A DNA stretch of 63,666 bases from an uncultured Verrucomicrobiota bacterium. GTDB lineage: Bacteria; Verrucomicrobiota; Verrucomicrobiia; Limisphaerales; JAYPEY01. How positions within the stretch are numbered: the first letter of the stretch is position 1; every line of letters begins with the position of its first letter. Under the pieces are notes generated by a model, which was given only the letters and a program-made list of their open reading frames with translations, was not told where the DNA came from and did no database searches. Positions 3,001 to 30,000 of the stretch are shown here, piece by piece. The stretch covers positions 1 to 63,666 of the forward strand of contig CAZFLK010000012.1 of the NCBI GenBank assembly GCA_964519245.1. The letters are read 5' to 3'. A program made the position numbers and the translations under genes.

Positions 3001-6000
3001 GGCGGCGTCGGCAACGATGTCCTGCAGGGCGAAGCCGGCATGGATGTGATGTGGGGCGGTGCGAATCTCCTCGCGGAAAGCAACTTCCGCTTTGTGGACG
3101 CCGCCGATCGTGCGACGAAGCTGGATGTGCCGCCGAACTGGGTCGCTTCCGAGGCGGCGCAACCGACCGGATTTGAGCCCGAACTCATGACGCCGAAGGC
3201 CCTGGCCGGACTGTCCGTGCAGGGCGACGTCATGGACGGGCGCGACACGCTGTTGGGTGGCCCTGATTCAGACTGGTTGTTCGGCGGCGGGGATATCGAC
3301 GGACTCTACGGCGGTCTCGGCGACGACTACCTTGACGGCGGCGTTCACAACGACTACCTCCTCGGAGGCCCCGACAACGACGTGATGCTCGGCGGCGACA
3401 ACGACGACATCATGCGCGGCGACTTCAATCTGGCCGGCGAATTCTCGACCGATGGAACGAAGTTCAAGGGCGTTGATTCCGCAGTGGAATACGAGTTTAC
3501 CACGGCGGGACGCGACCAGATGTTCGGCGGCAAGGGCAGCGACCGGATGTTCGGCGACGGCGGTCCGGACTCGCTCCGCGGCGAACGCCTCTATGGCGGC
3601 GATGACATCGACTTCCTTTATGCCTACTCGCATACGACCGGCGCCTCGACACCGGCTGAGTTCCAGGCGGAGACCCAGATCGGTGGCAGCGAACTTCACG
3701 GCGGTTCCGGTTCGGACTGGCTCTACGGCGGCATCCGGGCGGACATCCTTTACGGCGACAGCGGCGCCGAGTTCATCCACGGCGACTGGCTCTACACCCG
3801 GCGTTACGCGCCCAATCCGAACGCCGACACCCTCGGCGGCGATGACAAGCTCTTTGGCGGCGCGGGCGAGGACCAGCTGCTGGGCGGCGGCGGCAACGAC
3901 GAACTCTGGGGCGGCGCCAATTCGGACTGGCTCCAGGGCCAGGAGGGCAATGACAAGCTCTATGGCGGCGGCAACATCGACATGATCGTCCTCGACAGCG
4001 ACCCCAACTATCGCAACTTCGGCGATGTCTTCGATGGTCACTTCGGAAATCAGTTCCAGTCCGATACGCTGGATGACAATGCAACCGATATCCTGCTGAT
4101 CGAAGGCTCCGACAACCGTGACACGATCTTGATGTCAGAGGAATCCGTGATCCTCGGATCGGTCGAGGTTCCGGAAAGCGGCATGATCGCCGGACAGGCG
4201 ACCTTCACCCTGACGCTCGGCCAGATCAGTCAAACCTTCACTGATATCGATCTGAGCCTCGGCATCGACAACGCGGTGGACGCCCTGAACGTCGCGCTGC
4301 ATGCGGGCAACAGCCCGTTCTTCAATTACGAGGACGCCAATGGCAAGCGGCATGGCCATGTCGAGGCAGTGCGCCGGGGAATGAACATCGCCTTCGTCAC
4401 CCGCAATCAGGGCGACGACACCACCCTCACGCTCAGTGGCGCAAATGACTACGTTAAGAACGTGCTCGGTTTCGCCACGGCCGGCACGGGCCAGGATTCC
4501 GAAAGCTACTTGGTCGTCGACTTCTTCGTCGGCGGCGTCACCGACATCTCCTTCGATCAATGGCCGGCGCGAGGCATCACGACCTCGGCGCCAATCCATT
4601 TCGTCGCGCTGACCAAGTGGCGCTCAGCGAGCGGCGATCCGGCGGTCGAGCAGTTCCGCATCTCGGGCCTCGGCGGCAATGACACGCTCGGCTTCGTTCC
4701 GGGCGCCGCGGCCGTCGACATGACGGTCCTGAGTGACCGCAGCTTTGATTGGGCCGGCGTCGTTGATGGCGGCCCCGGCAATGACACCTTGCTCGGTTCC
4801 TCCGGCCGCGACCGACTGGATGGCGGCTTCGGCAGTGACACCATCTACGGCTTCGACGGAGACGACCGGCTCTTCGGCGATGGCGGTCCGGGTCAGGGAC
4901 TGATCGGCGACGACGATTGGTTGTTCGGCGGTTCGGGCAATGATGACCTGATCGGCGGACAGGGGACCAACCGCATCTACGCCTGGCCGATCGATCCCAA
5001 CATCGGCGGCATCAATGACACCGCCATCACGGAACTGAAGTTCGAGGACGGCTTGGAGGCGTCGGTCACCGACACGAACCGAATCGCCAGCATCCTGTCG
5101 ACAGCCGACGTGCCGGAGGACGGCATCCTCACCGCTGATGCCCACTTCGCCCTGGTTATTGGCGGGCGCTTGTTTGACGTGGTCGTGCCGAAGAGCGCCA
5201 CGGATGGTTCCGCCAACGTGGCCGATGATCCGAACGCCAACATCGACGATCTCGTCGCGGACATCAACGATGCCATTGATAACGCACTTGGAATTCCGGA
5301 TGGCGCCGACAATGGGCTGGTCCGGGCCACGCGGGCAGAAGACGCGAACGGCGGAAAATTGGACCGGATCGTTCTTTCGACGCAGGGCACAACCTTGAGC
5401 ATTACCAACTTGGGGACAGGGAATCCCGCCGCGACGCAGTGGAAGTTCGTCCAAGGGCAGTCCTCCATCGAAGGAGTCATCACCGCCTTGGATGTCGCGC
5501 CCGCCGACGGGAAGATCTCAGGCGGCGACGCCTCGCTCCAGTTGCGGAACAACAACACGGTTGCGACGTTGACCGTTTCCGTGGCGGACACCGATGACAA
5601 CGCGTCCCTCGATGATCTGGTTGACGACATCAACCTGAAGATTGCGGCATCGCCGCTGGCCGATCAGGTGAGCGCTGAGAGCAGCGGCGGACGCATCCTG
5701 TTCCGTTCGTTGACCACATCCATCAAGCTGATTTCCAAGTTCGGCGTCTACCTCAACGAGGACACCGGTCAGTATTACAACCACGACGGCAACGGCCTTT
5801 ACGCCGAGGTCGACACCGGCCTGAACCGCAACCTCGGCAGCCCGAATGACGACCTCCTGTTCGGCGGCACCGGACTGGACTTCCTCTACGGCAATGGCGG
5901 CAACGATACGCTCTACCGCGCCGACGGATCGACATTTGAATCCCTCGATGGCGGTCTCTCCGGCGATGCTTGGAAGGAATACGCGAAGGAAAGCGACAAG

Positions 6001-9000
6001 GTCTGGTACTACCGCGCCACCAACGCGGACGATGTCATCAATGTTGACTTCGTCACCGAGCCCGGCTTGTTCCAGGACCTGCATCTGATCACCCGTCTGA
6101 CGAACAACAACGGCAACTTCACCTTCGCTGCCCAGGTGAAGTTGAACTTCAACGCCACCGACGACGCCGGCAACCCGATCTGGAATCCGGTCGATGCCTA
6201 CACCGACTTCAGCGCATTGCGCATGCAGGCCGAAATGGGCGAACCGGTCGATTCCGGTAATTCCATGGCCGCCGCGAAACTCGAATACCAGCAACAGGAG
6301 ATGGAGAACAACCTCCTGCCGCCGGAGGGCGACTTCATCGCGATCATTGTCGACGCCCTGGGCGGAAACGATCAGATCAACGTCGGGCCTACCGTGCAGA
6401 AGACGGTCTGGGTCGACGCCGGCCCCGGCGACGACACGGTCCAGTTCACCTCGGGCAACGCAATCCTGAGCGACGTGGCCGAGCGGCCGCACCGCAACGA
6501 TATTCCTGACTTCGCCACCGCGCTCGGCGCCGCAGCCCTGATCGGCCGCGCGGACATCTCGGAATTGAAACTCGGCCTGGTCAGCGGCGACGTCGCGAAG
6601 TTCAACCTCGGGTTCAACGGTTCCAACGATGTCTTCGCCCTGAGCCTGCCCTTCGATGGGTTGAACGGTGTCGGCGACAACTCGACGTTGGCGCATCTGG
6701 TCGATGACGTGAATGCGGCGCTGACCTCGGCGGATTTGGCGACCCAGGTCAAGGCCGTCGCCATGGGCGGCCGATTGGCGATCATTCCCACGCTTGGCGG
6801 CAACGTGGTATCCATCCAGATCACGGCTAACGCCGACGACACGTCCGGCGCGCTCGACCAGTTGCAGTTCAAGAACGAGGACATCGCCGGCCAGGCGATC
6901 CTGCTGGCCATGGGCGACGCGCCGGTCAACGGCCAGATTCAGACGGACATTCAGTTCGGCGTGCGCCTGAACAACGGCGCGGCGGTGAACATCACCGTTT
7001 TGGCCAGCGCCACCAACGGTGAGGACGGCGAGGCCAACGCCTCCATTGACGACCTGATCGACGACCTCAACGCGGCCATCGACGAGGCCGGTCTGGAGAG
7101 CTCGTTGCGGGCCGGTCGCGTCGACAACCGCATCCGCCTTTACACCATTGCGCCAATCCAGAATCCGAGCGTCTCGCTGGTGATCCCTGAGAGCAACGCG
7201 ATGATCGATCAGCTCCACTTCGCCAACGGTCAGACCGCCAAGGCGATCTACGTGCTCTCGCGCAACACCAACCTGACCGGTCTGACCATGGACAGCGCTA
7301 CGGACGTGGATTACTTCGTCTTCCAGTTGGGGCATATCCCCGGTGGCGCGCCGCGCATTGAGCTGACCAGCGCCTCGCCGCTCGACGGCCTTGGTATCTC
7401 GATCTTTGACCTGAATCAGTTGGCGGCCAACGCCGCAGTCACCCCGGTCGCCGTCAGTCCGGACGGGCCGGACCTTGACGGCTCAGGCAACAACTCGATC
7501 GCCGACGCCTATCTGCTGCCGGATCTGCGCGACTTGGGGCGGATTACACATCTCAACCTGCACACCGATATGGATGAAGACTTCTTCCATTTCGAGTTGG
7601 AGGCGGACGCCGCGGCCGGCGACAAGATCAGTCTCCTCCAGGGCGGCTTTGAAGGGCTTCTGGAATTGGCCGTTCTGGACCAGGACGGCGCGGTCGTGAC
7701 CTCCGCGCAAACGACCCTTGAAGATGGGCCGGTCATCAGCCTCGCGCTCGATGCGCTGACCAAGGGGGATTACTACCTGCGGGTGAAGCAGGTCGCCGAC
7801 AATGATGGTTCCGGCGCCGTTGATACGGACGAACTGGACGACAACCTCGGCTTGGCTGGCGGCGACGCTTCAACGGCGGCCCTGGGTGTGGTCAATGCCA
7901 ACGGACCTCAGAATGCCTTTACCGTGCGGGCGACATCGAATGGAGCGCAGTTCAACGGAGTGAAGATCATCTTCGAAACCGGCATCGTCACCGCCGGCAA
8001 TGAAACGGCTTCCTACAACTCGACAACCAAGGAGTTGACGCTCTCGATTGAGGATGGAGCATCGACCGCAGCGCAGATCATTGCCGCCATCAAGACCGAC
8101 CCGATGGCGGCCGATTTCACCGCCGAACTCTATGATGTGGGCGGCGGCTATGAGCTCTTCCCGGCCGTCGGCGGCAACGGTTATACGATTCTCAACCTCT
8201 CGGGGCAGTCCAACAGCTCCATCTCCCTGAGCGGCTTGCAGGCCCACACGCCGTATCTGCTCAAGATCGATTCGCCCAACGAAGTGCCGACGATCTACAG
8301 CCTGAATTTCATCCTCGAGGAACCTGCTCAGGAAACGCAGACCATCAACATGGCCGCCACCGTCAACACCGTCCGCAAGGACGTCATCCTCGGCGGAACC
8401 GGCCATGACCGGTTGCAGGGCGGCAGTGGCGAGGATTGGATCTTCGGCGGTCCCGGGAATGACGTGATCACCGGCGGCCTCGATACCCAGAAGAGCGACC
8501 TCCTGTTCGGCGGGCCCGGTGACGACACTTTCCAGATCACCACCGACTACCTGCCAAGCCTGACCAACAACCCGGACGCCACTTTCATCCCGACAACCGT
8601 GGATCGACTGTTCGGCGGCGATGGCGACGACCGTGTCTTCTATCAGGGCGGCGACCTCGACAACCTGAGCCGTCCGATTCCGGACTTCGCCTCGATCCGC
8701 TACAACCGGATCCTGCACCGCTACGAATTTACGACGCTCCTTTGGGATACCGCCAACCAGGAATGGGTCGAGGAGACGTTGCCCGGTTCTTCGCTCGTCG
8801 CCGAGAATAGCCCGACCAGTGTGGACGGACGTCTGGATTCCAACACCACGTTCGAAATCGTCCTCGGCGGTGTGAACTACTCGGTCACCGTTCCGAAGAA
8901 CCTGGGCGACGGCGTTCTCGCGGGCGGCAATGTGGTCGATCTCGACAACGGAGTCAGCCGGACCTTCCGCCTGAGCCTCGGCGCCAACGCTCGATTGACC

Positions 9001-12000
9001 GTCACCGTCACCGGCACCGCCGCGGTGGATGACGCGGACGATTACGCCGCGCAGATCCGTAGCCAGATCGATGCCAGCGAACTGGCGGGGAGCGTCACCG
9101 TCGGATCGGTGGGCAACGCCGGCATGGCCCTCGAGTTCCGTGTGCAGGGCATCGTCGAGGCGGATGAATTGAGCGTCGGGTTGGCGCTCGGCTCCACCGC
9201 CGCGGACCTGGCGGATCTCGGCTTCAATGCCGCGGGCCAGAGCGCGCCGGTCAACAACTCCGCCGGCGATCTCGCCAAGGACATCAAGACGGCCATGCTG
9301 AAGGCGACCAATCAGGATACAACAATGATGGAGGATCTGACCGATCGCCTGGCCGTCGGATCCGACAAGGGCCGTCTGGTGTTCGTTACCAGTGAGCTTG
9401 CCAAGGATGACACACTCGCGATTGCGAGCGGTGGAGCTTTCGGCGACGGCGCGGCTCTCGGCCTGGCCGCCGGGCAAGAGGGCGTTGCGCGGCGCGTGTT
9501 CTCCCAGACCTACGCCTACTACCAAATCAACGAGGTTGAGCGCACGGTGATCGATCTGCGCTCTGGCAACGATGTGTTCCGCGGCGACGCTGAGTATGTC
9601 TTCCGCAACCAGGACGAGGAATGGGGCATCAAGTCCGGCGATGTGCAGCAGGGTGGAGTGATCTCCAATCTCGAGATTCATGGCGGTCCGGGCAACGACC
9701 GGCTGTTCGGCGGCCACTTCGATGACCTGATCTTCGGCAACGACGGCAATGACTTCGTGGCCGGCGGACCGGGCGATGACGTGATCGACGGCGGCCCCGG
9801 CAAGGATCTCCTCGCCGGCAACTCAACCTCTCAGCCGGACGACTTCGAATTTGTCACGCGCAACGCCGTCGATGGCCTGAATGACGACGTCAATTTTGCC
9901 TCCTTCCTGCCCGACCTGACTGCGGGTCTGGAAATCGACGGTCTGACCTTCCACGAGGGCGACCCGGGCGATTGGTACCTGATCCGCACACCGGAGCCGC
10001 TCAAGCAGTTGCTGGAGCCCGGCCAGGGCTGGCTGACTCAGGAAATGATCTCCATCGTGTTCGACGACGCCTTTGAGAACGACCTGTTCAACAACGGCGG
10101 CGGTGGACCGATCCTCGACGACCTTTCGAAGCTCGAGAACACCCGCTACTTCCTCTTTGCGGCCCAGGACACGGACGCCGGCGAGGCCTTGTCCGTCGTT
10201 CCGGTCGAGAAGTTCAGCGGTGTGCCGGAGTATTACCTCCTCCACGTCGTCAACCTCCGCGCACAGCAGGTCAAGGCCGTCGATGCCGGCCCGTCAAACG
10301 GACGCATTCAGGACCCGTCCAAGGCCGACGACGACACCGCGAAGTTCACCCTGATCCTGGACGGCGCCGCCCATGTGATCACCGTCGCCGACGACGCCGG
10401 GAACACCACGCTAGATGACCTCGTCGACGACGTTAATGCCGCCTTCGTCACGGCGAACATCGGCGACCGGGTCTTCGCCTACAATGAGCTTGGCAAGATC
10501 GTGATCAGCCGCGTGGACGCCGGTTCCATCTCCTTCACTGCGGATCCCGGAACGGCTGCCAATGTGCTGGGCTTCCTGCCCGTGGATACCAATGCGGGTC
10601 GCAACCCCGCGATGGGCGGCTACAAGATCGTGTTCAGTGAGGCCGTCGGCAAGACGATCGAAGTCGCGCCGGCCGCCGCCAACCTCACCATCAACTCGCA
10701 GTTCGCCGCCTACCGGCCGGTTGTCATTCCGCTCGGCGACATCAACGGCGACGGCTTCGGGGACTTCGTCGCCGGCATCAGCGACAACATATTCGGAACC
10801 GGGCCGACCCAGATCCGCATCTACCTCGGCGGCCACATTGATGAGGACTTCGACGGCGACGAGATCTTCGATGTCGGCGAGGACCTCAATGCCAATGACA
10901 AGTTCGACACGGCCAGCGCCTACTTCCTGAATAACTCGGACTTCACGCTCGCCCTGCCGGCGCCGGTCCTGCGCGAATCGGTCGGAGCCGACACCGCCAA
11001 GCTGCGCAGTTACTTCAGTGAGCCCGGCGATGTGAACGGCGACAATATCGACGATATCGTGGTGGCGGTTACCCGGATCGACGGCGGCGCCAGCGCTGCC
11101 GCCGCTGTCTACGTGTTGCACGGCCGGGCCGACGATCCCGCGACGCCGCAGCCGGATGGCTGGGCCGCCAATGTCGCCCTCGCCACTGCCGCGGATGTGA
11201 CCGTGGATGTGCCGGACGTGGCGACGGGCAGAATCGCAGCCGCAATCGTTGGCGACCTTAACGGCGACAACAAGGACGACCTCGCGGTCAGTCGCGACAA
11301 CACGCTCTATCTCAAGTCCGGAGCCTCCTTGATGGCGGCTGAGACCCTGACCGCTTGGACCGACAGCTACACACTGGGTGGCGGGACGCTGGGCGACTTT
11401 GGGGCTGTCGGTGATTTCAACGGCAACGGCAATGACGACTTTGGCGTCATCGATGAGACGACGGACCGGCTGCATGTCATCACGAACGAGGCCTTCACAG
11501 GCAATACCGTGGCGTTGGACGCCTCGCCGGCTGAGATGAGGTTCGATCACACAGCCGATCTGGACGGCTATTCCATCGTCGCGCTGGGCAACCTCAACAA
11601 GGATCTCGATACCGGTCGTCCGATCCAGGACTTCGGTGTCACCAGCCAGACCGGCTCCTTCGTTCTGTTGGGGCGGACGGTCAATAGGGCGATGGATCCG
11701 GATGACGCCATCGCCATCGAAGCAGGCGTCCAGCTCGTCAATGCGGGCGACTTCAATGACGACGGTTTCGACGACGTTGCGGCCGTCAAACTGGAGCGGA
11801 CTCCGCGACTGGACGAGAACGGCGGACAGTTCGTGCATTCCGTCGGAATCCTTTATCTCGGAACGATGACGGGCATAGATTCCGCCAGCCCGAACCTGGT
11901 CTTCGAACGTTCCCAGCCGAATTACCTGGCTGAGGCCGGAGCCTCGATCCCGGCGGGTCTGTTCGCCTTCGTCGGCGACGTGAACAACGTCCCGTCCGGC

Positions 12001-15000
12001 GTGGTTGCCACGGGTACGTTCACGCTTGCCGGCGACATGATCACTCTGACAGCGACCAATGCCGGGGTGGTTTACGAGAACGTGACCGTCGTGGTCAATC
12101 CGTCGCTCGGCTCCGGGCCCGTGACCGTGTCGATTAACAAGAGCGGCGGTCCGGCGGCCTATGTCATCACGGTCCATACCTTGATGGATGGCTCGACCAC
12201 GACCGCCGAGGTGGCGATGGCATTGGATACGCTGGCCGACTACAGCGCGACCGGCGGCGATGGCACGGCTTCCGGTATGACCATGGAGACTTTTGCAGGC
12301 GTCACCCAAACGGCGAAGTCCGGTGACGGTCATGCGGATCTGGTCCTGGCCGAGCAACTCGGCTCGACGCTGCGCGTCTATCATGGCGCGGAACTGGAGG
12401 ACTATTTCAACCCGCAGCCCACGCCGGCGTTTGTTCTGCCGCGTCTCTATCGCTTCGATCTTGCGCTGCCGGTCCTGTCGGCGCCGGACGCCAACAATTA
12501 CCAAGGCATCGACATCTCCGGGTCCAACGGCGTCAATAGCCACCCGGATGTCAATGAAGCCTTCGTGATCGAGGGCGTTGACGGCAATGAGCGCCTCGCC
12601 AACCTGATTCCGGTCGGTGACTTCAATGGCGACGACGCCGAAGACTTCCTCGTCTACGGCCGCCTGCGCGCCTATCTCTTCTTCGGTCCGTTCGAGACCA
12701 TCGGGCTGTCCGAGGTGACGGAGCGCGCGGATCACATCTTCGACCTCGCCGCCTTCGGTCGACCCGCCGAAAAGATGGGCGACATCAACGCGGATGGCGT
12801 TGCCGATCTCGCATTCGTTCGTTACGACGCCGGAACGACCACCACGACCGTCACCTATTTCTCAGGCGGTGTGCTGCACGAAGTTCCGCGCGTTGTTAAT
12901 GCGGTTGCCGATCTGGATCCGCGCTACACGCGTCAGATCGTCCTCAGCAATGCGGAAATCGACGGAGCCAACGCCGAGTTGCTCGTCCTGAACTTCCTCG
13001 GCGACATCAACCCGGCCAACAACGTCGCCCACTCCGACATCGTGATCGTCGGCGACACCGCTCGGAACGAGACCCTCTACGGCTACATCTTCAGCGGCGC
13101 CGATCTGAGCGCCGCGCCGCATGTCTACGGTCAGGACCAGGCCATGGCCATCAACTCCTCCAGTGGCGCCAAACGCGTCGATCTGGAATTGTTCACCTCG
13201 ACATTCAGCTCAGGAACAATCAACCAGAGCATTCCGAACTCCGGACAGGGTGCGGAGAACAACCGCCAGTCCGGTCTGATTCCGACCTCGACGGGCAGGG
13301 CCTATCCCTATATTTCGATCGATGGAGTCAATCCCGTCACTCAGGCCTTTGGCTTCCTGGTCAGGGCGGCGGGCGATCCCTACCAGACCACCAATACGAT
13401 GGCGGGCGCTGGAACCACCGCGATCTCAGACTATTCGACCGCTTCCACGACCGTGCCGGTTAGCGGCATTGCCGGCAAGGTCTTCGACGTGGATGTCCGG
13501 ATCCGGCTGAATCATACCTTTGACGGCGACCTGACCATTGTCCTGAGCGCGCCGAACGGCGGTCCTTCCATCACTTTGTTCAACCGCCACGGCGGCGGCG
13601 GTGACAATCTGGGAACGGGGACGGGCGCAAGCACGGTCTTTACGACCTTCGACGATGAGGCGCCGACCTACATCGGAAACGGCGTGGCCCCGTTTGCCTC
13701 AATCCCGTCCGCCTCAAAGTTCATTCCATACACCAGCCTCTCCGCTTTTGACAATTTGGACGGAGCGACGACGGCGGGGAGCGCGACGAACCCGAACGGC
13801 AACTGGACGCTGAGCATCACGGATAACGCCGGAGCCGACCAGGGCGCGCTCGTCGACTGGCAGTTGGTCGTCAAGGCGGAGCCCGCAGCGGCAGTGACAA
13901 CCAATACGCTGAATCTTGGAGCCAACGCCCGGACCGGCAACCTGACCGACGTCGATTTCCGGGTGGCGCTCTATCATCCCAACTTGGCCGATCTGAAAGC
14001 GGAGGTGGTCGTTCCTCGCACGAGTGGAATGACCACGACGGAGGTGGCAAGTTTCACCCTGTTTGACTTTGGCGATCTCGCCGGCAACTGGGTCTGGTAC
14101 AACTGGTTCGACACCGTGGGCGACTTCAGCGCGGCCGATTACCTGCCCTATTATGAATCCGTTCGACCCGTTGACAGCGCCGCCGCATGGAATACGGAGA
14201 TCGGAAAGGTCAATGCCTTTGACGCGATGTCCAACCTTGATTGGACGGGCGACTGGCAACTGAAACTTTCCAGCAAGACTGAGTCCGCCGGCTTCCTCTA
14301 CTTCTGGGAGGCTCTGGCCAAGACCGACGACACCATCAGTTCGGTCATCACGACCGATACCCTCGTGGGCGAGATCAACGATGTGGATGTCGTCCTCAAT
14401 GTCACCCACCCGGATGTCGGCGATCTGGAATTCATCCTGAACTACGATGGCAAGGACCAGGCGGGCATGCCGGCAAGCCGCACGGTCAATCTCGTCAATG
14501 GCAGCGCGAGTCGCGACGGCGCCAACTTCTCCGGCATCACCTTCAGCCAGGAGGACGGCGTCGCCCTGGAGAACAACACCCCGTTCTCCATGATCGTCAA
14601 ACCGGACTCCGGGACGCTCAATAGCCTCCGCGGCCTGGATCCGAACGGTGTCTGGACACTCGAAATCAAGAACGAGGCCGGCGATTACAGCGGCACCCTC
14701 GACAACTGGAGACTGAACATCACCACGAATCCGTCAGTGGCGCGTCTCGACGTGAATGGAGCGCCGGGCACGGTCTCGGATGTGAATGTCCGCGTGTCGC
14801 TGGATTACCCGACCCTCGCCAACCTGCGCCTTGAACTCTACTCACCCGAGGGCACGACGGTGGATCTGGTCCAGCAGGACGATCTGAGCGGCGCCAACCT
14901 GAGCAACATCGAGTTCAACGATGGAGCCTCGGCCTTGTCCGGAGGCGCAGCGCCCTACACCGGCGTCTTCTCGCCGAAGCAGTCCCTCAGCGCCTTCCAG

Positions 15001-18000
15001 GGCGAGGATGTCAATGGCGAGTGGCATTTGCGAATCTACGACGAGGTCGGCACAAGCCTCACCGGAACACTCAAGAGCTGGGATCTCGAATTCGCCTTCG
15101 CGCCCGAAGATCTGGACACGACCGCCATCGGCGACGTCAACGGCGACGGGTTGGAGGATCTCGCCTTCAGCCTCACGCGCTACGATCATCCGAATCCGAC
15201 GCCGACGGATCCGCCCACCACCGCCACGACATTCATCCTGCCCGGCCAGGAAGTCGCGGCGCCGGCCGCCCTTCAGTTGATTCGCGATGGAGGCGCGCTG
15301 GTGTCCGGAACGTCGCTCGGCGGCGGCGCCTACGCCCTCGGCGATCTGAACGGCGATGGTTTCGACGACTTTGCCTTGAGCCGCACCCGCGAGGACAACT
15401 TCCTTGCCCAAGGCGGCTTGCTGGTGTTCCTCGGAACTTCGAAGTATGGCGCCGAGGGCTCAATTGTGCGCCTGACCGACTCGGCCGCGAGCTTCAAGAT
15501 TCGTCAACTCGCCGCCGAGGCCTTTGGCGCCACGACGCTCATCGGCAATCTTTCCGCCACCGCCGGCGACTTCAACGCGGACGGTCAGATGGACCTCGTC
15601 GTGACCCAAGCCTCGGCCCTCCAGACCACGGACTACTCCAATGAACTCAATCCGTCGGTCGTCCTCAGTCAGCAGGAACGCGGCGCGGCCTACATCTTCT
15701 TCTCCATCATGAGCAAGGGCAGCGATCTCACGCTCGCCGACGCCGGCTTCATCGTTGAGGGCGCCGATGAGCACGACCAGCTCGGCGTCCTGTCGCCGGC
15801 GGCCGGCGTTGATCTCGATGGCGACCGCGTCCATGACCTGATCGTCGGCGCCGAATACTCCGAAGGCTTCGTCAGCGGCAATGTCAAGGTGGACGCCGGT
15901 CGCTTACATGTGATGTATGGCGACCACGCGTTGTTCGAGATTCCGCAGGCTTACGCGATCCTTACCAACCGCACGATCAGCGGCAGCGGCGACTTCCTGG
16001 TCAACCTCGGAACCGGCCGGCCTTCGATCTTCCAGGACTCCGACCTCGACGGCGACGGCTTCCCGGATGACACGCGTTATGCGCTGATGTCCGGCGAAAC
16101 CGAACGTTGGTATCGCTTCACCACCCTCGGTGATGGCACGGCCGGCGATTACATCCGTCTCGATCCCGTGTTCGTGGACCGCGAGACCAGGGCTCTGGCG
16201 CCAGTCGACTCTGGCATGTTGGCGGGCGAGGACCCGACCATCACCCTGCTGCCCGACGGCGAAACGCTGGAGATTCGCAGCGCCTTGGGATTGGCCTACA
16301 CCTACTACGAATTCGAGGGCGCGGCGCGGCAGGTGACCTCCTATTATTGGAGTTACGACACCTTCCAGAGTCCGCCGCGCTGGGTCGCGGTGCCCTACAC
16401 CTACACGACAATCGATCTGCCGACGACTCTCGACGCCGCCTTCGCGGCCGGAACGGAGGTCAAGGCGGGGGCCGCGACGCAGGTCGATCTCTCGGTTGCC
16501 CAGCGAAGCAACCAATATGCCGTCCGCTACGAAGGCTACCTCCAGATCACGACGGGCGGCGCATACGACTTCACGCTGAACTCCGACGACGGCAGTCGAC
16601 TCTACCTCGATCTCGACAAAGACGGGACCTTCCAAGCGAACGAGTTGATCGTGAACAATGATGGGATACAGGCGGCCTTGGAGGTGACCTCGGCGTCGCA
16701 CATGCTGGATGCGGACACGGCTTACAAGGTCAAGGTCGAGTACTTCCAGGTTGGCGGCGATGCGGTGTTCGAGTTCACCTACAACGGCCCGGACAACGCC
16801 GCGATCACGGACAAGACCGTCCCGTCCAGCGCCTTTGTCAACACCTTCGCCCAGCGCGTCGGCATCGCCGAATTCGATCTCTCGCCGTATCTTCAGTATC
16901 TCGACGATCCGGAGGCTCTGGAGAGCGTGAAACTGTTCCTGAAGTCCGCGGCCTCGGCGCAGGACTCGCTGCCCACGAATCTGGTCGATATCGCTGTCGT
17001 CGGTTCACAGCTCTTCCTTGTCGGCAACGACACGGCCGCCGCCCAGCCGTATCAGATGTATGTCTCTGACGGAACGCCTTCGGGCACACGCCTGATCGGT
17101 GGGCTGTCCGACCAGCCGAAGCAGTTGGCCGGCGACGGCGACTTTGCCTACTTCGTCATAAAGGACCGCGAGATCTGGCGGACGGGCGGCTCCAGCTTCA
17201 GCCCGATCGACACCTTGGTGAACGGCGACGCCGCAAACCTCACGGGCATTGGCAACAGCCTCTACCTGGTCGAGGTCGTCGCCGGCGACGACAACGACCG
17301 GCTCTGGTTCACCAGCGGCGTCGGCATGCAGCAGGTCCCCACACCGGCCGGAGCCGGCTCGCCGGTCGTCGATCCCGCCGAGTTGACCAAGGGCGCCAAC
17401 GATACGCTTTATTTCGTCGCGGATCATGACGGTGGAACGGCGCTTTTCCGGGCCGATGAGCTCGACGTGACTTTCGTGCGAGGCGACGTCGCCTCCGGCG
17501 CCGACCGTCCGCGCGGGTTGTTCGCCTTCGATGGCGACGTCTATTATGTCGGTGAATCGCAGAGTGAGACCGTCCTGTTCAAGATCTCGGGGACGAGTTC
17601 GGGCTCGATCGGAACCATTGGAGGCTCCGACTTCTACGAGTTCCACGAGGTCGCCATGGCCGGCAATGATCCCAAGGCGGTCTACATCACCGCTTGGAGC
17701 GGGACTCCCGAGAGTCGGACCTCGGTTGGACTCTATCGGTTGACCGCGTCGGATGCCCTGGAGCAGGTCTCCTTCAGCGGCGGCGGCGCGATCCAGACCT
17801 TCACCGATGTCCAAGTCTACAAGAACAAGGTCTATCTCGCGACGACGACCACCGACACCGGCAGCGAGCTGTTCAGGGTCGACGGGCTCAACGCCGCGGT
17901 GGTCAAGAATATCAGGGCTGGCGCGGACGGCTCCAACCCGGCCGAGCTGACCGTGTTCGACAGCCTGCTCTACTTCACCGCCACTTCTGACGGTGCGACG

Positions 18001-21000: not shown

Positions 21001-24000
21001 AACACGGGAACGGGAACCATTCACACCGCCATGGCCACGGCGACCGGCGCCACCGCCGCCGCTTCGGGGGCCGTGGTCATGAACGCGCCGGATGGCAACA
21101 ATGCGATCCGCTATCAGTTGGCGTCCGGAACCGGCGCCTTCACGATCGAGTATGTGCGCAGCGCGGACGGCATGGTGAGCGTGACCAAGTCGGGATCGGT
21201 CTATGAGATCGCGTTCGTTTCGGGCGTGACGCTGGCCAAGGACATCATTCAGGCCGTCAATGCGGACGGGAAGCTCAGCGCCGAGGACGCCGTTGATTCA
21301 CTGCTGTTCGCCGACATCGATTCCGGGAATTCGTTCACTCTGGCCGGCGACGCCATCACCCTGACCGCGGCGCTGGCCGGAGCTCAGTTCGATGGCGTCG
21401 ATGTCGTGATCGACCCCTCGCTCACCAGCGGCACGGCGGCCGCAAGCATTGACAAGACGGCCGGCGCCGGAGCCTACGTCATCACCGTGACGGTTCGCTC
21501 GGATGGATCCTCCACCACGGCTGAGGTCAAGACGGCGCTGAACAACCTGACCGACTACAACGCCACTGGCGGCGACACCTCGACTGTCGACGGCAGCGCG
21601 ACCAACGACACCACCGGGGTCATTAACGCGAAGGAGGGCGTCACGGTCGATCGACTGGCCGATCTCGACCTCCTTGCCGACACGAATGGAGCCGCATTCA
21701 ACGGCGACTACTACTTCGTGGCGAACAACACCAGGACGAACGGCCCGGACGAGGGCGATACGCTTTGGTTCATCGATGGCTCCTCCGAAGACAAGGTGAA
21801 TCTGGGCGCTGCGAAGACCGCGAGTTCCGACTTTGACATCGAGATCATCGGGGCGACGACAACTCACCTCTACATTCTGCTCGGCGCGAATGGCGCCGGA
21901 GGCGATTCCCGCACGGTCTATACGGTCAGCACGAGCAACATGCTGTCGCAGGTCATGTCCGGCGGCGAGGCGCTTGCACAGGCGTCCAACTTTTCCGCCG
22001 ACGGCGCGAACGCCTGGTTCTCCGCGGTCAAGGCGGACGCTCCGGGCACGGACGGCGTCGAACTCTACCGCTCCTCCTCCGCCAGCGCCGCGACGCTGAT
22101 CGAGGTGGACGCTGACAGCAACGATGACAGCAACCCGATGCGCGCGCTGGTCTCCGGTTCTTTCGCCTACTTTACGGCCGAAGACGATGGGACGCTCGGG
22201 CTGTATCGTGTGTCGACGACCGGAACCTCTGAGGATCTGATCACCGGTCAGGGCATTGTGACCGGTCCGAAGAATCTCACCGCCTTTGGGGACAAGCTGA
22301 TTTTCTCGGTGGCCGACGACGTGTTTATTACCACCGGCAACGGCCTCGAGGTCGATCGATTGATCGATGGGGCCGACCTCGCCGCTGACCCCGATCCGGA
22401 CATCACCGTCACCATGCTCGAGAACTTCACGGTGACGGGCGCCAGCAAGGTCTACTTCACCTCCAACGGCGGCAAGCAGCTCTGGTCGACTACCGGCGTC
22501 ATCGACAACCGGACGCTTGTGGATGTCGGAACTGCGCTTTCCGGCGCCCAGACCTCGGTCGAGAAGATGTTCAATGTGAACGGCAAGCTGTATCTCAAGG
22601 TGAAGACCTCCGGCGACCGCAAGATCTATCACTACGACGGCACATCCACGCTGAACGAGCGTGACAGCTTTGCCGGAGAGTTCGAGCGACTGACCCCGGC
22701 CGGCGACGCCCTGTTCTATGTGAAGAACGGCCAACTCTGGGTGACGGACACGACCACGACCAAGCAGTTGACCGTTGAAGACAATAATGACACCGCGGTC
22801 GGCGTCGACAACGTCACGGCCTTGGCCGCGCTGGCGGACAAGATCTACTTCGGCGCCGACGATGTAAACAACCCGGCCATCGTCGCAGCGCTTCATCGCA
22901 GCGATCCGACTCCGTCCGCCACCGACCGCACAACCAAGCTGCTGGAGGACTTTGGCGGCGGTCTGCTGGCCCCGTTCGTCGTTCATATTCTTAATGGAGA
23001 AGGCGATGGGGTGGTGACGCCGGCTGACGGAACGGCGGCGACGCTCTATTCCTTCGACTCGGATGGTACAACCTCGGAAATCAATCTCACCGGGGCCATG
23101 CGCGACTTCTTCGAACGTGGATGGACGCGCATGACGGTCCGCATCGAGGCCACGACCGCGGAGGGCTTCCAGATTCAGGACTTCACGGGAAGTCGTGATA
23201 CGGGCAGCGTGCTGGAGATTACGCTGGAACAGCAGAGCGGCGTGCTGGCCGATGTCTACACCAACGAGGGGCGTCGCTTCCTCCAGGGGGAAACCCTGAT
23301 CGATCTCCGCAACCTTGAGGGAGGAACCTACTTCATCCGCGTCTACGATCCGTCCGCGGCAATGGGCAGCTCGTCGGTGGCCGACGATCAGGGCTTCGCG
23401 CTCGCCTCGCCGACCGAGGTGGTCGATGTCGCCGGCACGCTGCACTTCCTCTCCGGCGGGAAGCTTTGGCGCACCAGCGGCACGGTCGCCCTCGAGGTGA
23501 TGGACGCCGCGGGCGGCAGCGTCGGCGCCAACGCCTCCAAACTGACCGATGTCAACGGAGTCCTGCACTTCTTCCGGACCAACGGAGCCGCGCGGGAACT
23601 CTGGCGCGTGCTGGACGGCGTCGCCGTGAAGCTGGGCGATCTTTCCGTGGGTGTCGATCCGGCGAATCTGACGGTGGCGGGCGCGCGCCTCTACTTCACC
23701 ATCGGCAACGAGCTTTGGACCGCCAACGAGGATCTGAACGCGGCGACCTCCACCAACAACGCCAGGTTTGAGGTCTCCGTCGATCCGACCAAGATCGCGA
23801 CCACGATGACGTTCCGCCTGACCATTGCGGGAACGCCGACCGGCGCCATCAACCTCACAGGCATCACGGCCATGAATGGGACGTCCTTGGCCGCGGTCCT
23901 GGACGCAGCGTTGACGGCTCTGACGCTGGACGCGACCTGGGACGCCGCCAATAACCAGTTGGACATCGTGGATGCTTCCGGACGCTCGCTGCGTGGCGCG

Positions 24001-27000
24001 GCCTTGTTTGAGACCGGCATGGACGAGACCGCTACTTCCGCGCTTGTCGGAACGCCCTCCTACTCGAAACCCGTCTTCAGCGGCGCGGTGACCATGCTGA
24101 CGGCTACCCTGGCCGACGCCGCGAACTTCGAGGCCGTGGGCGACCGGCTCTACTTCACGCAGGGCATTCCGTCCTCGAGTCTGTTGTATTACACCGACGG
24201 CGGCGCGGTCATGCAGACCTCGGCGGCGGACATGTTCCCCGGCGCGCAGCCTGGCTCGGGCGCCGCCAACATCGGCGGTTTCGTCTACTACCTGGTTGAC
24301 AACGGCGCTTCGAACCGCGTCGAGCTCTGGCGCACGAAACTTGACGCCGCCGCCAACCAGGACGGCACATCGGGCACGCTGGTCAAGGAGCTTCCGGTGA
24401 ACACCGATACGCCCGATCTGCTCGGCGCCGCCAACGGCCTGCTCTACTTCACGGTCAATCAGGGCGCCTCGGTCTTCCTCTGGCAGACCGATGGAACGGC
24501 CGCGGGAACGCGCCTGATCGTTGGGCTGCCCGGGGCGGCGGACCTCCTTTCGGTCGACGATCAGTTCAAGATCCGCCTCGTGCACGATCCCAGTCTCATG
24601 CACGTCTCCGCGACCGTGGACACCAATGTGGTTGCGACTTTCGCCAATGGAACGCTGACCGTGGTCGCGAATATCGACACGGTGGAGACCCAGGATATCG
24701 CGGCCGCGGTGAATTCGCTCTTCGGATTCACCGTTGATCTGGACTCGAATGGAACGTTGCCGAGGGACGGGGTGACGACCGGGCTGCTGACCGGCGGCGA
24801 AGACGCGGTCTACTCCTCCATCGCCGTCTCGCCCGCGGGCGCCGACAACGATTTCGTCATTCGCGCCGTCGTCGACGGTCCGGATTGGGACGGCGCCCTG
24901 CTCGACTTCGTCGATGATGACAATCTGGCGGCGGGAGAAGCGGTTGCGGATCACGTGGTGGTCACCGACCAGAACGGCGCCGTTGTCAGTCGCACGATTG
25001 TTGTCCGCTTCAATGATACGACGACCGCTTCCGCAATCGTCGCCGCGGTGAACGATCTGGACGATTGGAACGCCGCGCTCGTCACGGACGAGAGCGGCGC
25101 GGGAACAGTGGCGATCGCGGATGAAGGGATGCTCACGCGGACCGCGGGCGTGCGCGGCGTGGCCTCCACCGCGAGGCTCGTGATCCCCGGCGCGAACAAT
25201 GACCTCTTGTTTAGCAGCGACCGTCTGGTCGGCGGCATGGCTGACAACGTGGTCAGGGTGAACATCATCGACACCGGCGCGATCTCCACCGGCTTGGCAA
25301 CGGCCAAGTATGACGACACGAACAAGATCCTGACGGTTGATATTCAGGGCGGCGTGACAACGGCCAATGAGGTCGTGGCGACGCTGTTTGCCGTGCCTGG
25401 TTTCTCCGCGGAACTCGACAAATACGACGAGGTGGAGAACGACGGCAAAGGAGCTGTCCGGATGGCGAATCTCGTGCCGGAGGTGGGAAGCTGGACGCTC
25501 GGCGACGCCCATACGGTCACAATCACCCGCGCCACGTTCTACTTCTCCGTCAACAATGGCGGCACGGCCGAATTGTGGCGTGCGATCGAGGACACCGCCC
25601 AGCGGGTCACGACCTCGCCGTCCGGAGCTGTCAGCCATCTCACCAACGTCAATGGCGACCTCTACTTCGTAGGCAACAACGCGAAGGCTCCGAGCCTCTG
25701 GCGCTCCTCGACGGATGCGCTCGGCAACATCACCTACAGTCAGGTCAGCTCGCTGCCGGGAGCGGTCGACAAGGTCTTGGGCGTTGGCGAGCGGATCTAC
25801 CTGGTGATCAACCGGCCGACCCCGGAACGGCCGATGAATTCGGATCTTTGGGTGAGTTATGTCGCAGCGGACGGCTCCCAGCTCACGCGCTACCTCCGCA
25901 GCTTTGGCGGGCCCGTCAATGAGTTGGCGGCCATGGAAACCACCACGTATGTGACCATCGGCAGCCGCACGACCGAACGCACCGCGCGGATCGACGGCGT
26001 GCTGTTCCTGTCGGCCCAGGACAGCGCCGGCGGATCCCAACTGTGGCGAATTCTCGACAACACCGAGCAATACACCGCCAAACTCCTGCTGGCCGACAGC
26101 TCGCCGACCGGCATCGGAAACCTGACCGTCGTCGACAACACCCTCTATGCCCAGGTGGGCAGTTCCGAGATCCAGCGCGTCACCGCCACCAGTGAGGTTG
26201 CCACCCAGTTCCATTCCGGCACGGCGGTCGATCAACTGACCGCCTCCGGCGGCGCGCTCTATTACCGCACCGGCGGCTCGGAACTCCGCCGCGCGGGCGT
26301 GCTGAACGGAAACCTCTTCTACAACATCGACACTTGGGCTCCGTTCGCCGGCGCCGCCCACTCGCAGTCCGATCGCGATTCCATCACGGGCGGCGAAGGC
26401 GCCGATATTATCATCGGCAATGGCGACCGCGACTACCTGTACGGCGGCAGCGGCGAAGACTTCTTCATTGGAGAACCCTATGAAATTCGCGATCGCGGAG
26501 TTGGCGAGAACAGGGTGGATCCGAATCAGTCTGAATTCTCAGTGATACAGCCGCGGCCGATCGATCCGGAGGTCTACATCTTCGATGCAGGGCTGCGCGC
26601 GGCTTTGGCGCGGGCGCTGGATATCGCGACCACCACCGGCTTCGACGGCAACCTCGTTACCCATGGCCGACTCTTCGCCAGCGAGTTGTTCATCCTCACG
26701 CAGTTGAACGCCGCCAACCTCGGGATCGGCGACCTACGCGGACTGCGCTTCGCCAGCAACCTCGAAACCTTGAACCTTAGCGGGAATCCCGTCACCAACC
26801 TGGATGAGCTGATCCCGGCCTTGGATGCCGTGACCGGCGCCTCGGTCGGAATGAAGAACCTGCGCCACCTGGGAATTGATCAATATCGCGCGAACGATCC
26901 GACCAGCGGCGGCTCTGTGGGAACCAAGGCGTCAACCTCCATCTCCTTTGGCGACGGCGTCTTAATCGACGTGACCGCGGCCGCAAACGGAACCGACTAC

Positions 27001-30000
27001 AACGGCGCCACAATCGTGATCCTCCCGGATCTCACCACGGGCATGATCTCGGCGACCCAGACGGGGTCGGCCGGGGATTACGTGATTACCATCCGCGTTT
27101 ACGCCGACGGTTCGTCGACAACCAAGCAGGTGGCCGACGCAATCGACGACTTGGGCGACTGGGACGCCGCGGGTGGCTCCATGACCCAGAAGGTTGTTGG
27201 CGGTAATATCTCCAGGCTCGCCGACGGCCAGATCCGCGCCACCTTGCGCGCCCTGAGCCTCGACAACACCGCCTTCGCCAGCACGGATTACTTCAATATT
27301 CTTACCGGGCTGAACCGCCTGATGTTCCTCAGTGTGAACGACGTTACGCCAGCGATTGGCGGCAACCGTCTTGGCAACCAGATCGGCGGGGGTAAGACCG
27401 TGACATCGTCCGACGGAACGGAAACCGCACTGCTCGCCAACACCGTCATTCTTAGCGCCGGCAACAACGCCGCCTATCGTCTGGACTCCAACGGCGCCGC
27501 CGATGTGGGTGAACAGTTCCAGATCGAGAAGCTCATGAACGGCGACTATCAGGTGACCTTCCTGATCGACGGCGTCACGCAGAAGGTCGAGGAATTCTCG
27601 GGAGCGGCCGCTTTCTACTTCGACGGCGGCGGGGGAGACGATCGACTCATCATCGATCCCAGCGTCGATGTGCCGGTGATCGCCTTCGGCGGCGATGGCA
27701 ATGATTACCTGATCGGATCGAGTGACGCCTCGGTCAACAACAAACTGGATGGCGGCACCGGCGACGATACGCTTGTCAGCACGGCCGCCGCCGACACCTT
27801 GGTTGGCGGCACGGGCAACGACACCTTCATCCTGAAGGCCGGTTGGGGCGACGACACCATCGTGGAACTGCCGGACGAGGGCGACGACACCATCAATCTC
27901 GCCGATCCGAGCCTCGCCAACCTGCAGGTTACGGTGACCTTGACCGCCAACATCACGATCACCGACGGCCTGAACACCCTCAGTCACGCAGGCGCGCGCA
28001 TCGAGAACTTCATTGCCGATCCCGCCGCGGCGGCCCTGCATCGCTTCAACGTCAACCTGCCCGGCTCCGCGTTGACGCTCCGGCCGGACTACCTGACGCC
28101 CGGATCCCGGACGCCGATACAGTATGTCGGATTTGACGCCCTGGAGATCGTGGCGATTGACGGGCAGGTGACCGTTGATGAGCGACTCGAGTTTGCCGGC
28201 GACTTTGTGATCCGCACCGGCAACCTGCAGCTCAATGATTCCATTCGCGCGGCGGGCCTGCTGCTGGATCTCTCACAGATCCTCCGCGTTGTTCAGCCGG
28301 AGTCGCTCGACCATGGATCGGGCAGCCCGATCGTGCTCGATGCCGACAACCTGAGAATCCTGCATGACGCCGGGGTCGGTCAACCGGATCATCCGGTGGT
28401 GATCGACAGCGATGTCTTAGAAGTCATAACCGATGGGACGAATGCCAATGCGGCCGGCGTCTATCTGGTTGAATTGGACGGAACGTCAATCGGTAACGTG
28501 GACATCGACGGCGATATCGCGGGCTACGACCAAGCCGAAACCGATTCCGGCATTCGCACCCTGGGTGGCGACGTTTCCATCCTGAACCTCGGCGGCCAGT
28601 TGGCGGTGGCGAACACCGGCGCTGTCGGCATCGAAGCGGGTGGCGGTGACATCACCCTCACGACTCAACTCATCGATATCCAGGCGCCGTTGCGCAGTTG
28701 GTATCTCTGGAACGAGGGGGCAACCGAGGGCAACGACCTCAACCGTGGCACGCTCCTGATCCAGCCGGTTGATGAGCTCTCGAAGATCGGACTGGCCGAC
28801 GACGCCTACACCGCCCTGAGCGATCAGGACCTCGTGCAGGACAGCATCCTGCACCTCAAGGCATCCGAACTCGATTACATCATCGACGGCTTTGCCGGAA
28901 GCCTGACCGGTGAGTTCGATGGCATCACCATCGGCCGCAGCGATGGCCGCCACAAGGTCGAGATCGGAACCTACGCGTTCCGCGACTCCGTGACCATCCG
29001 CGCGCCGAAGTCGCCCGGCGGCATGAATGTGGTCGGCACGTTCAGCACGATCGCCGACGCGCGTATCCGGTTCATCGGGGCCTTCGCCACCACCGTGCTG
29101 GACGCCGATGTCTATACCAACGGCGACGACAAGCTGTTCAACGACAGCGTCCGTGTCGGCGCCGGCAAGGATGTCGTGGTCAGCACCGGTCCTTTGGGCG
29201 GTGACATCACCATCGAGGGACGTCTGGACGGCACAGCCGACGGCAGCGGTTTGAAGGAAAGTCTCACCATCATCGCCGGCTCCGGCAACCTGGTGATCAA
29301 GGGCGATATCGGCGGCGTTGAACCGCTGGAGAACCTGACCATCATCTCCGCCGGCGAGGTCGCCATCCACGGCAGCGTCAACGTGCGCGGCAAGTTCCGG
29401 ATCATCCGGACCACCGGCGTCACCGATTTGGGCGTCCCGTTGACCGTCGGCGGCCCCGTCGGCGATGTGACCGTGGGCGAACTTGATTTCGCCACCGAGT
29501 CCAACATCGTTTTCGAGGGTAATGTGACCCAGACGGGAACCAATGCGATGGTTCTCGAAACCACTGGCGTCAACGGTTCCGTCACCTTCAAGCAGAACCT
29601 GACCACGGCCGGCGACCTGCGGGTGACGACCGCCGCCAATGTCCTGTTCAGCGGCACGGCCAATATTGGCGGCGCGATGATTCAGAACGCCGGAACCACC
29701 ACGGTGTTCAAGGGCGCGGTCACCGCGGATTCCTACGACATCACCACCGCCGATCTGAGCTTCGACTCCACCGTTGCCGTCGCCGCAGGCAACAACATCC
29801 TGCTTACCGCCAATGAGATCAACTTCAAGGGCGGCGTCGGATCGGTGACCAGCGCTGACATGACCAGCGTCATCACCCTCCGGCCGAATTCACACGTGAT
29901 TCCGATCAACCTCGGTACCGCCGCCGGCGTTAGCTCCAACTCGCTGGACCTCAGCAAGGCCGATCTCGACGCGATTCATTCCAACTTCGCCGAGGTGCGG

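Follow-up and report, generated by a model that had tools for sequence, protein, structure and literature searches.

A repeat-family module, probably copied within the same gene, lies inside a calcium hairpin of an integrin-type propeller in a giant Verrucomicrobial protein

The Dx[DN]xDG calcium hairpin of beta-propeller blades is usually treated as indivisible, and the locus described here raises the question of whether such a hairpin can be opened by a whole domain. The window that we analyzed, the first 63,666 bases of contig G000:C12 from a Verrucomicrobial genome (G000), carries a giant open reading frame (ORF) that encodes an integrin-type FG-GAP beta-propeller in which the motif GDVN is separated from GDGHADL by 336 nucleotides. 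A preliminary description of the window had noted this split together with two paralogs of the intervening segment, and had proposed that the insert might be allosterically coupled to calcium binding. We asked whether the two half-motifs belong to a single blade, what the insert is and where it came from, and whether it is tied to the metal site. The observation was confirmed: a module with relatives elsewhere in the same protein is nested in a calcium hairpin, and this nesting is real, can be dated and is under selection.

The host region scored 41.1 bits against Pfam FG-GAP, well above the cut-off of 22.1 (E 1.6e-10). A motif scan of residues 3579-4206 of the ORF identified six canonical loops of the GDxNGDxxxD type around the split one, and a Dx[DN]xDGxxD hairpin was found to recur in successive blades, joining strand 1 to strand 2. 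The AlphaFold2 model of the 741-residue propeller, computed with 35 homologs, had a predicted local distance difference test (pLDDT) score above 90 in most blades. When the model was compared with the PDB using Foldseek, the top matches were integrin alpha chains (E 3.5e-7 to 1e-5, probability 1.00); the query-normalised template modelling (TM) scores of these matches were only 0.2-0.33 because the query also contained the insert and low-confidence linkers. In the seventh FG-GAP repeat, LFAFVGDVN is followed by the 112-residue insert and then by GDGHADLVLAEQLGSTLRVYHG. GDVN is encoded by GGC GAC GTG AAC (nucleotides 11974-11985) and GDGHAD by GGT GAC GGT CAT GCG GAT (from nucleotide 12322), and the 336 nucleotides between them are in frame within one ORF and encode 112 residues, exactly as the preliminary description had placed them. 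With the loop numbered D1-V2-N3-[insert]-G4-D5-G6-H7-A8-D9, position 3 is followed by the insert and only then by position 4, and blade 7 has no compact, contiguous nine-residue loop.

Strands 429-433, 554-558 and 564-568 of the model repeat the strand-loop-strand-strand pattern of the canonical blades, with pLDDT means over 10-residue blocks of 92 and 79 before the insert and of 91 and 90 after it. Model residues G433, D434, V435 and N436 were invariant across five orthologs, and the C-terminal half of blade 7 aligned with the canonical loops of genome G034 and of other homologs. Since the two halves are contiguous in orthologs and the strands that flank them match the canonical blade pattern, we read GDVN and GDGHAD as the two halves of one blade. 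The opposite outcome, in which modelling would place them in different blades, was tested for, and both the flanking strands and the unsplit orthologs point to a single blade.

The loop exists in three states among the relatives of G000. In G003 and G002, which belong to the same genus and are 92% and 89% identical over the 741-residue propeller, the insert sits at the same codon, and G041 (locus L020), with a propeller 53-54% identical, carries it at the same site. G004, also of the same genus, reads GDVN-RVDGAP-DGFSD and G042 (L022) reads GDIN-RSDSGVL-DGFAD; in both, the loop is lengthened by 6-7 residues at the point where the insert sits in the others, and both have this short extension and no domain. 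The loop is unsplit in G034, from another family of the same order (GDVNGDGHND, in full GLGDVNGDGHNDVGIAE), which provides the uninterrupted homolog that the preliminary description had suggested looking for, and in G043 (L040; GDMDMDGDAD). The consensus over 35 homologs was GDVNxDGxxD. The closest related loci came from metagenome-assembled genomes labelled Verrucomicrobiales, Verrucomicrobia and Limisphaerales, with L022 labelled Lentisphaeria. A scan of Joint Genome Institute (JGI) metagenomes with the junction alignment gave 296 pattern matches, none of which was confirmed as a further insert bearer, and a second scan with the C-terminal part of the propeller gave 17 loci, all of them distant (25-41% identity). 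The junction region had no match among 5.8 billion proteins at lengths of 362-2,000 residues (E<=1e-10) or 113-361 residues (E<=1e-8), a range that does not include the true orthologs, which exceed 2,000 residues. A match in G001 (46% identity, residues 627-737 only) was rejected as an ortholog as it belongs to a different giant protein.

When folded alone by AlphaFold2 with A3, an alignment comprising 50 rows of paralogs and orthologs, the insert gave a pLDDT of 80 and a predicted TM score of 0.75, with strands at residues 7-14, 17-26, 34-40, 47-51 and 60-66, a helix at 73-80 and a strand at 86-90. Residues 1-3 and 106-112 had a pLDDT below 50, and the low-scoring flanks of the core amount to about 5 residues on the N-terminal side and about 14 on the C-terminal side. 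The insert is thus predicted to be a self-folding module of ~90 residues with six strands and one helix. The family to which it belongs had no match above threshold in Pfam, NCBIfam or PHROGs. The insert profile matched PDB sequences at best with E 0.012 (a cell-surface protein, 59 columns), Foldseek detected no PDB match at E<=0.001, and tblastn against 50,697 phage records found none at E<=0.05.

In a set of 1.84 billion representative proteins, the A3 profile had 1,172 matches at E<=1e-3; tightening the threshold left 480 at E<=1e-10 and 117 at E<=1e-30. A single protein contained up to 27 copies. Among the 150 best matches, 58 start like flagellin; these are 727-1,676 residues long and each has a whole-protein E of 1.6e-26 or better. 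Pfam Flagellin_N was found in 6 of 15 matches tested, and Flagellin_C was also present in four of those six; one match bears the name 'flagellin-like hook-associated protein FlgL' in its source. The profile search, the flagellin-like starts and the Flagellin_N and Flagellin_C matches therefore identify the module, at the level of sequence profiles, as the putative repeat making up the exposed central part of giant flagellins, which also occurs in giant non-flagellar proteins. The Flagellin_IN motif (PF07196) matched one of 50 family members (E 0.0066), and with 22.3 bits the database match P0146 came close to its cut-off of 22.7. A set of 476 partly redundant sequences (ORFs from the fetched loci, the 150 best database matches and four giant ORFs) contained 828 matched copies of the family, and of these only this orthologous set is flanked by the split FG-GAP half-motifs. 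Nesting of the module is tolerated elsewhere as well: the propeller of G043 (L040, residues 1100-1600) has a copy of the family between two blades, after blade 2 (E 7.3e-8). In the G034 propeller (L016 / L008+L011, G034:C30:24300-27100) a flagellin-IN-like module likewise follows blade 2, a site that is reminiscent of the place of the integrin alpha-I domain. Further on there is a jelly-roll-like module of ~190 residues with a GWxIDD motif.

To locate the source of the insert, a six-frame search of the 6.4-Mb genome was performed with the insert as query, and it returned three matches: the insert itself, nucleotides 21325-21621 and nucleotides 26953-27189. A phmmer search inside the protein agreed on the two paralogs. 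The copies that the preliminary description had named at ~21330-21580 and ~26920-27190 are therefore real, with identities of 54% (E 2e-22) and 41% (E 1.4e-10), and it had missed the other members of their family, which numbers about 16 in the protein: an iterated hidden Markov model (HMM) built from the paralogs gave 16 matches, three of them partial. The insert matched this HMM with an independent E-value of 1.1e-20, being itself among the seeds. In DNA sequence the insert was 65.7% identical to the 21.3-kb copy over 245 nucleotides (E 1.6e-12), while the 26.9-kb copy, which aligned at the protein level only, had no significant DNA match. The domain tree was built from 52 copies belonging to four giant orthologs (92 columns, three insert copies included). 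In it the inserts fell into a group of seven that also contains the 7107-type copies from G000, G003 and G004, named for the residue at which the G000 copy begins (81 in the Shimodaira-Hasegawa-like approximate likelihood ratio test, SH-aLRT). This group was nested in a group of 11 that includes the 8976 type (92). The best reading is that the insert is an intragenic duplicate of a 7107-type unit, as far as the trees and alignments indicate. Given the DNA identity of 65.7%, the duplication is an old one, and a recent duplication was rejected for the same reason. A foreign origin was rejected too, since the base composition of the insert equals that of its host (GC 63.1% in the insert relative to 62.5% in the rest of the propeller; GC at third codon positions 80% relative to 75-81%). 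No direct repeat of the kind left by target-site duplication was seen by eye at the junctions, where no repeat search was run; the GD codon pairs on either side of the insert are, by eye, the two GDs of the canonical motif itself.

We then compared selection on the insert with that on its host. In three pairwise comparisons of G000, G003 and G002, the ratio of nonsynonymous to synonymous substitution rates (dN/dS) was 0.14-0.18 for the insert and 0.12-0.16 for its core, as compared to 0.06-0.11 for the N-terminal and 0.04-0.09 for the C-terminal part of the propeller. Selection on the insert is purifying, though a little less strict than on the host propeller. The G041 insert has kept its frame and fold-defining pattern at 47% identity.

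The metal ligands behave differently in the near and the distant insert bearers. D434, N436, D550, G551 and D554 (D1, N3, D5, G6 and D9) are kept in G000, G002 and G003, which by sequence comparison says little since such conservation is expected anyway at 89-92% overall identity; G004 and G042 keep the same five residues despite their short extensions. In G041, the only divergent insert bearer, the flanks read GNVN...IPSNADL and D1, D5 and G6 are lost. Seven other loops of the G041 propeller, read by eye, keep the canonical motif. Because G041 has lost these ligands while seven of its other loops read as intact, the comparison argues, for one lineage, that the calcium site may be dispensable once the domain is present, which is the opposite of a conserved coupling. 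The allosteric link between insert and calcium put forward in the preliminary description thus found no support. Calcium may still bind the split loop in G000, G002 and G003, and would not be required for keeping the insert.

We consider it likely that a folded module of ~90 residues became nested in the calcium loop of blade 7 by intragenic duplication and is displayed at the tip of the blade as an extra surface module. A 7107-type copy would have been duplicated within the gene, with a single origin, into a loop that may already have been lengthened by 6-7 residues in the lineage before the domain arrived; such an earlier loosening would fit the lengthened loops of G042 and G004. The short low-confidence stretches at either end of the core would serve as linkers, allowing blade 7 to close from its two halves beneath the module. 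The insert presumably acts like its paralogs and flagellin-borne relatives by giving the calcium-loop face of the propeller an additional exposed surface for binding or decoration. Several points weigh against this account. A maximum-likelihood propeller tree from which the insert columns had been left out (16 rows, 571 columns) had the topology (G042,(G041,(G004,(G000,G002,G003)))), with support of 80/84 and 80/88 at the inner forks. The insert-less G004 thus falls inside the insert-bearing group (80/88), and the best tree needs two changes of the insert; only 8% of the bootstrap trees need one. Taken at face value, the placement of G004 would need a gain and a loss, or two gains. In the approximately unbiased (AU) test a single clade of insert bearers was not rejected (p 0.14), and the history would be either one gain, or one gain followed by loss in G004. 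There are only two independent insert-bearing lineages in the data, and the domain tree, with 92 columns and 52 rows, neither shows nor excludes that the inserts are monophyletic. Within the 741-residue model the insert is poorly modelled (block means of pLDDT 26-52), because only four alignment rows contain it. The role in binding or decoration is suggested by context.

Part of the same evidence would also suit a neutral passenger, a duplicate that landed in a tolerant loop and is carried along without adding anything. The insert evolves faster than its surroundings (81-84% amino-acid identity versus 91-96% for the flanking propeller parts), the gene of G004 is not visibly harmed by having no insert, and other orthologs bear other modules elsewhere, indicating that the propeller tolerates insertions. 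Such a passenger is nevertheless doubtful in view of the low dN/dS in all three comparisons, the retention of frame and fold pattern in G041 and the confident fold of the insert on its own. A calcium-gated module, in which the metal clamps the ends of the insert and thereby controls its position or order, or how stable blade 7 is, would draw on the intact positions 1, 3, 5, 6 and 9 of G000, G002 and G003. It could also draw on the extensions of G004 and G042, which indicate that an excursion at position 4 is compatible with retention of the ligands, and on the low-scoring ends, which would suit flexible linkers through which the loop might still close. We judge it unlikely, since the close relatives are uninformative at their level of identity and G041 has lost three of these positions in this loop while seven of its other loops keep the canonical motif. 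A bolder version is more improbable still: that the split loop is a working calcium clamp (D434/N436 with D550/H552(O)/D554) through which environmental calcium switches the display of an adhesive module, and that the module belongs to an ancient 'insertable' class of surface domains with members in contractile-tail sheaths, phage virion proteins, giant flagellins and giant adhesins. That the arrangement is an artefact, with a repeat copy mis-assembled into the propeller or a non-coding frame, might be suspected from a highly repetitive gene in a fragmented assembly (403 contigs). The chance of this is negligible, since the junctions are common to four separately assembled genomes with insert identities of 47-87%, the nearest paralog is too distant in DNA sequence for a collapse or chimera, and the open frame is unbroken over 47 kb.

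The integrin alpha chain offers a close precedent for a nested domain. Its propeller is seven-bladed, and its alpha-I domain has a VWA fold and lies between blades 2 and 3. The present protein resembles it in having an FG-GAP propeller with Dx[DN]xDG hairpins and a folded domain nested in a loop, but here the domain is an unrelated module of six strands and one helix that probably comes from the same gene and lies inside the calcium loop of blade 7. Among 50 members of the insert family, a VWA match was seen in one, at E 0.036 only, and the comparison with alpha-I can serve only as an analogy. The integrin I-domain itself is described in PMC12422189 as a lineage-specific acquisition. The 'calcium blades' described by Rigden et al. 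2011 (PMC3123361) are Dx[DN]xDG loops at the blade tips of integrin, rhamnogalacturonan lyase, PilY1 and a fungal lectin; the authors treat these loops as compact and mention a subtilisin in which the motif lies inside an insertion of 25 residues. The loop of the host belongs to this type, and its neighbouring blades carry the compact canonical motif. The difference from those loops is that here a domain lies within the motif, with 112 residues between positions 3 and 4. With the giant flagellins, which have a variable central region of outer domains, the protein shares the domain family by profile search; the copies are in tandem in the exposed centre there, whereas here a propeller loop houses one copy and the others are distributed over a giant non-flagellar protein. 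A search of the open-access literature found no paper in which a domain had been described within a Dx[DN]xDG loop.

The outer domain of the contractile-tail sheath has the same size and element count as the insert and is likewise a surface-exposed domain nested in another. The insert scored 11.7 bits against PF17481 (Phage_sheath_domII; E 0.38), below the cut-off of 31.4, and two of 50 family members had weak matches to the same model (best E 0.027). One of the 50 matched the PHROG 'tail sheath' (E 7e-4). Among neighbours by ESM features, the PF17481 cluster stood at 0.82, below three unnamed clusters at 0.94-0.95, the first of which is wholly viral, and in BFVD the structure matched uncharacterised phage proteins at E 6e-4 and 7e-4 (TM 0.61-0.64). 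A profile-profile comparison of the insert family with a 28-row sheath alignment gave a probability of 0.95% (E 0.057, 33 columns only), and hhalign of the family against the one sheath protein found in the phylum gave a probability of 0.2%; PF17481 itself occurred in none of 121 genomes of the order and in one of 301 of the phylum. Several of these signals point weakly towards the sheath domain but no test reached significance, and we regard kinship with it as a lead and not as membership.

Domain nesting in integrin-type propellers was already known; the present variant has the nested module, probably of the same gene, inside the calcium hairpin. The hairpin can open at position 4 within a conserved, selected protein, and the established views of propellers and of calcium binding are unchanged by the insert. 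Related genomes hold the loop before (canonical), between (6-7 extra residues) and after (a whole domain), so that one can test directly by which steps a domain is inserted and what this costs a metal site. The unnamed domain family, with at least 1,172 representative proteins, is common to giant flagellins and to giant surface proteins, Verrucomicrobial and other, and merits a family model and a structure.

The features of the window are collected in the table. Along the giant ORF, Pfam domains comprise RTX calcium repeats, P_proprotein (the P-domain of proprotein convertases), FG-GAP and PA14, and its product is predicted to be a secreted or surface protein of the Verrucomicrobial bacterium. 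Orthologous open frames have 28,751 (G003), 27,799 (G004) and 28,355 (G034) residues. That of G003 (G003:C13) also runs off its contig end, while that of G004 (G004:C30) begins with MDRQRKYGFELEQLEQRLLLSADG after a stop codon and has 18,972 residues up to the start of the propeller. Because a further 12,151 residues lie between the propeller start and the stop codon in G000, the full-length gene probably has ~31,000 codons. According to 10.1101/2023.11.21.568195, proteins of more than 30,000 residues were not seen in phyla of the Planctomycetes-Verrucomicrobia-Chlamydiae (PVC) group other than Omnitrophota.

Table. Positions of the giant ORF, the split propeller blade and the insert-family copies in the window
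Feature	Position (nt)	Strand	Remarks
Giant ORF, 15,710 codons	1..47133	+	runs off the contig 5' end; stop codon 47131-47133
Integrin-type FG-GAP beta-propeller region	10678..12900	+	residues 3560-4300 of the ORF as read; Pfam FG-GAP E 1.6e-10
Blade 7, N-terminal half: strand 1 and loop positions 1-3 (LFAFVGDVN)	11959..11985	+	strand at model residues 429-433
112-residue insert	11986..12321	+	folded core ~11998-12279; low-scoring flanks read as linkers
Blade 7, C-terminal half: loop positions 4-9 (GDGHAD) and strands 2 and 3 (DLVLA, LRVYH)	12322..12390	+	strands at model residues 554-558 and 564-568, pLDDT about 90
Closest paralog, likely source type	21319..21621	+	residues 7107-7207; 54% identity, E 2e-22; groups with the inserts in the domain tree
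Second close paralog	26926..27195	+	residues 8976-9065; 41% identity, E 1.4e-10; sister to the insert/7107 group in the domain tree
More distant family copy	7876..8157	+	iterated HMM within the protein
Further full copies	18334-18606, 18823-19116, 20668-20970	+	iterated HMM within the protein, alignment A3
Further full copies	24499-24768, 24811-25107, 25162-25443	+	iterated HMM within the protein, alignment A3
Further full copies	30052-30327, 30433-30699, 34363-34665	+	iterated HMM within the protein, alignment A3

Some minor observations concern the relatives and the rest of the ORF. The ortholog of G041 in L020 is an open frame of 21,975 residues that takes up its entire contig of 65,925 nucleotides. 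The L020 record is labelled Klebsiella pneumoniae, which is contradicted by its gene content, and the label is probably wrong. The separate giant protein of G001 (L017, G001:C45:2106-20000), a genome that is 88% complete, has an open frame of 5,965 residues within the fetched stretch and an N-terminal start of the 'LEPLEVRVLLSADG' type; RTX repeats, FG-GAP blades and laminin-G/LamG-like stretches were recognized in it by eye. In the window, motifs similar to 'ELWRSDGT/LWxTDGT', also read by eye, recur at residues 5680-6100, 7240-7650, 7800-8170 and 8500-8780 (about nucleotides 17000-26300). These blocks had no Pfam match at E<=1e-5 and are probably, judging by the motif, further propellers with copies of the insert family interspersed. 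Residues 1400-2420, 2930-3140 and 3430-3520 (about nucleotides 4200-10560) are made up of repeated units of the pattern 'F.L.L.G....V.V......S..DLV.DIN.AL', which we take to resemble the hook IN motif of flagellin. The iterated HMM of the insert family weakly touched one such unit, at residues 3435-3493 (E 0.06).

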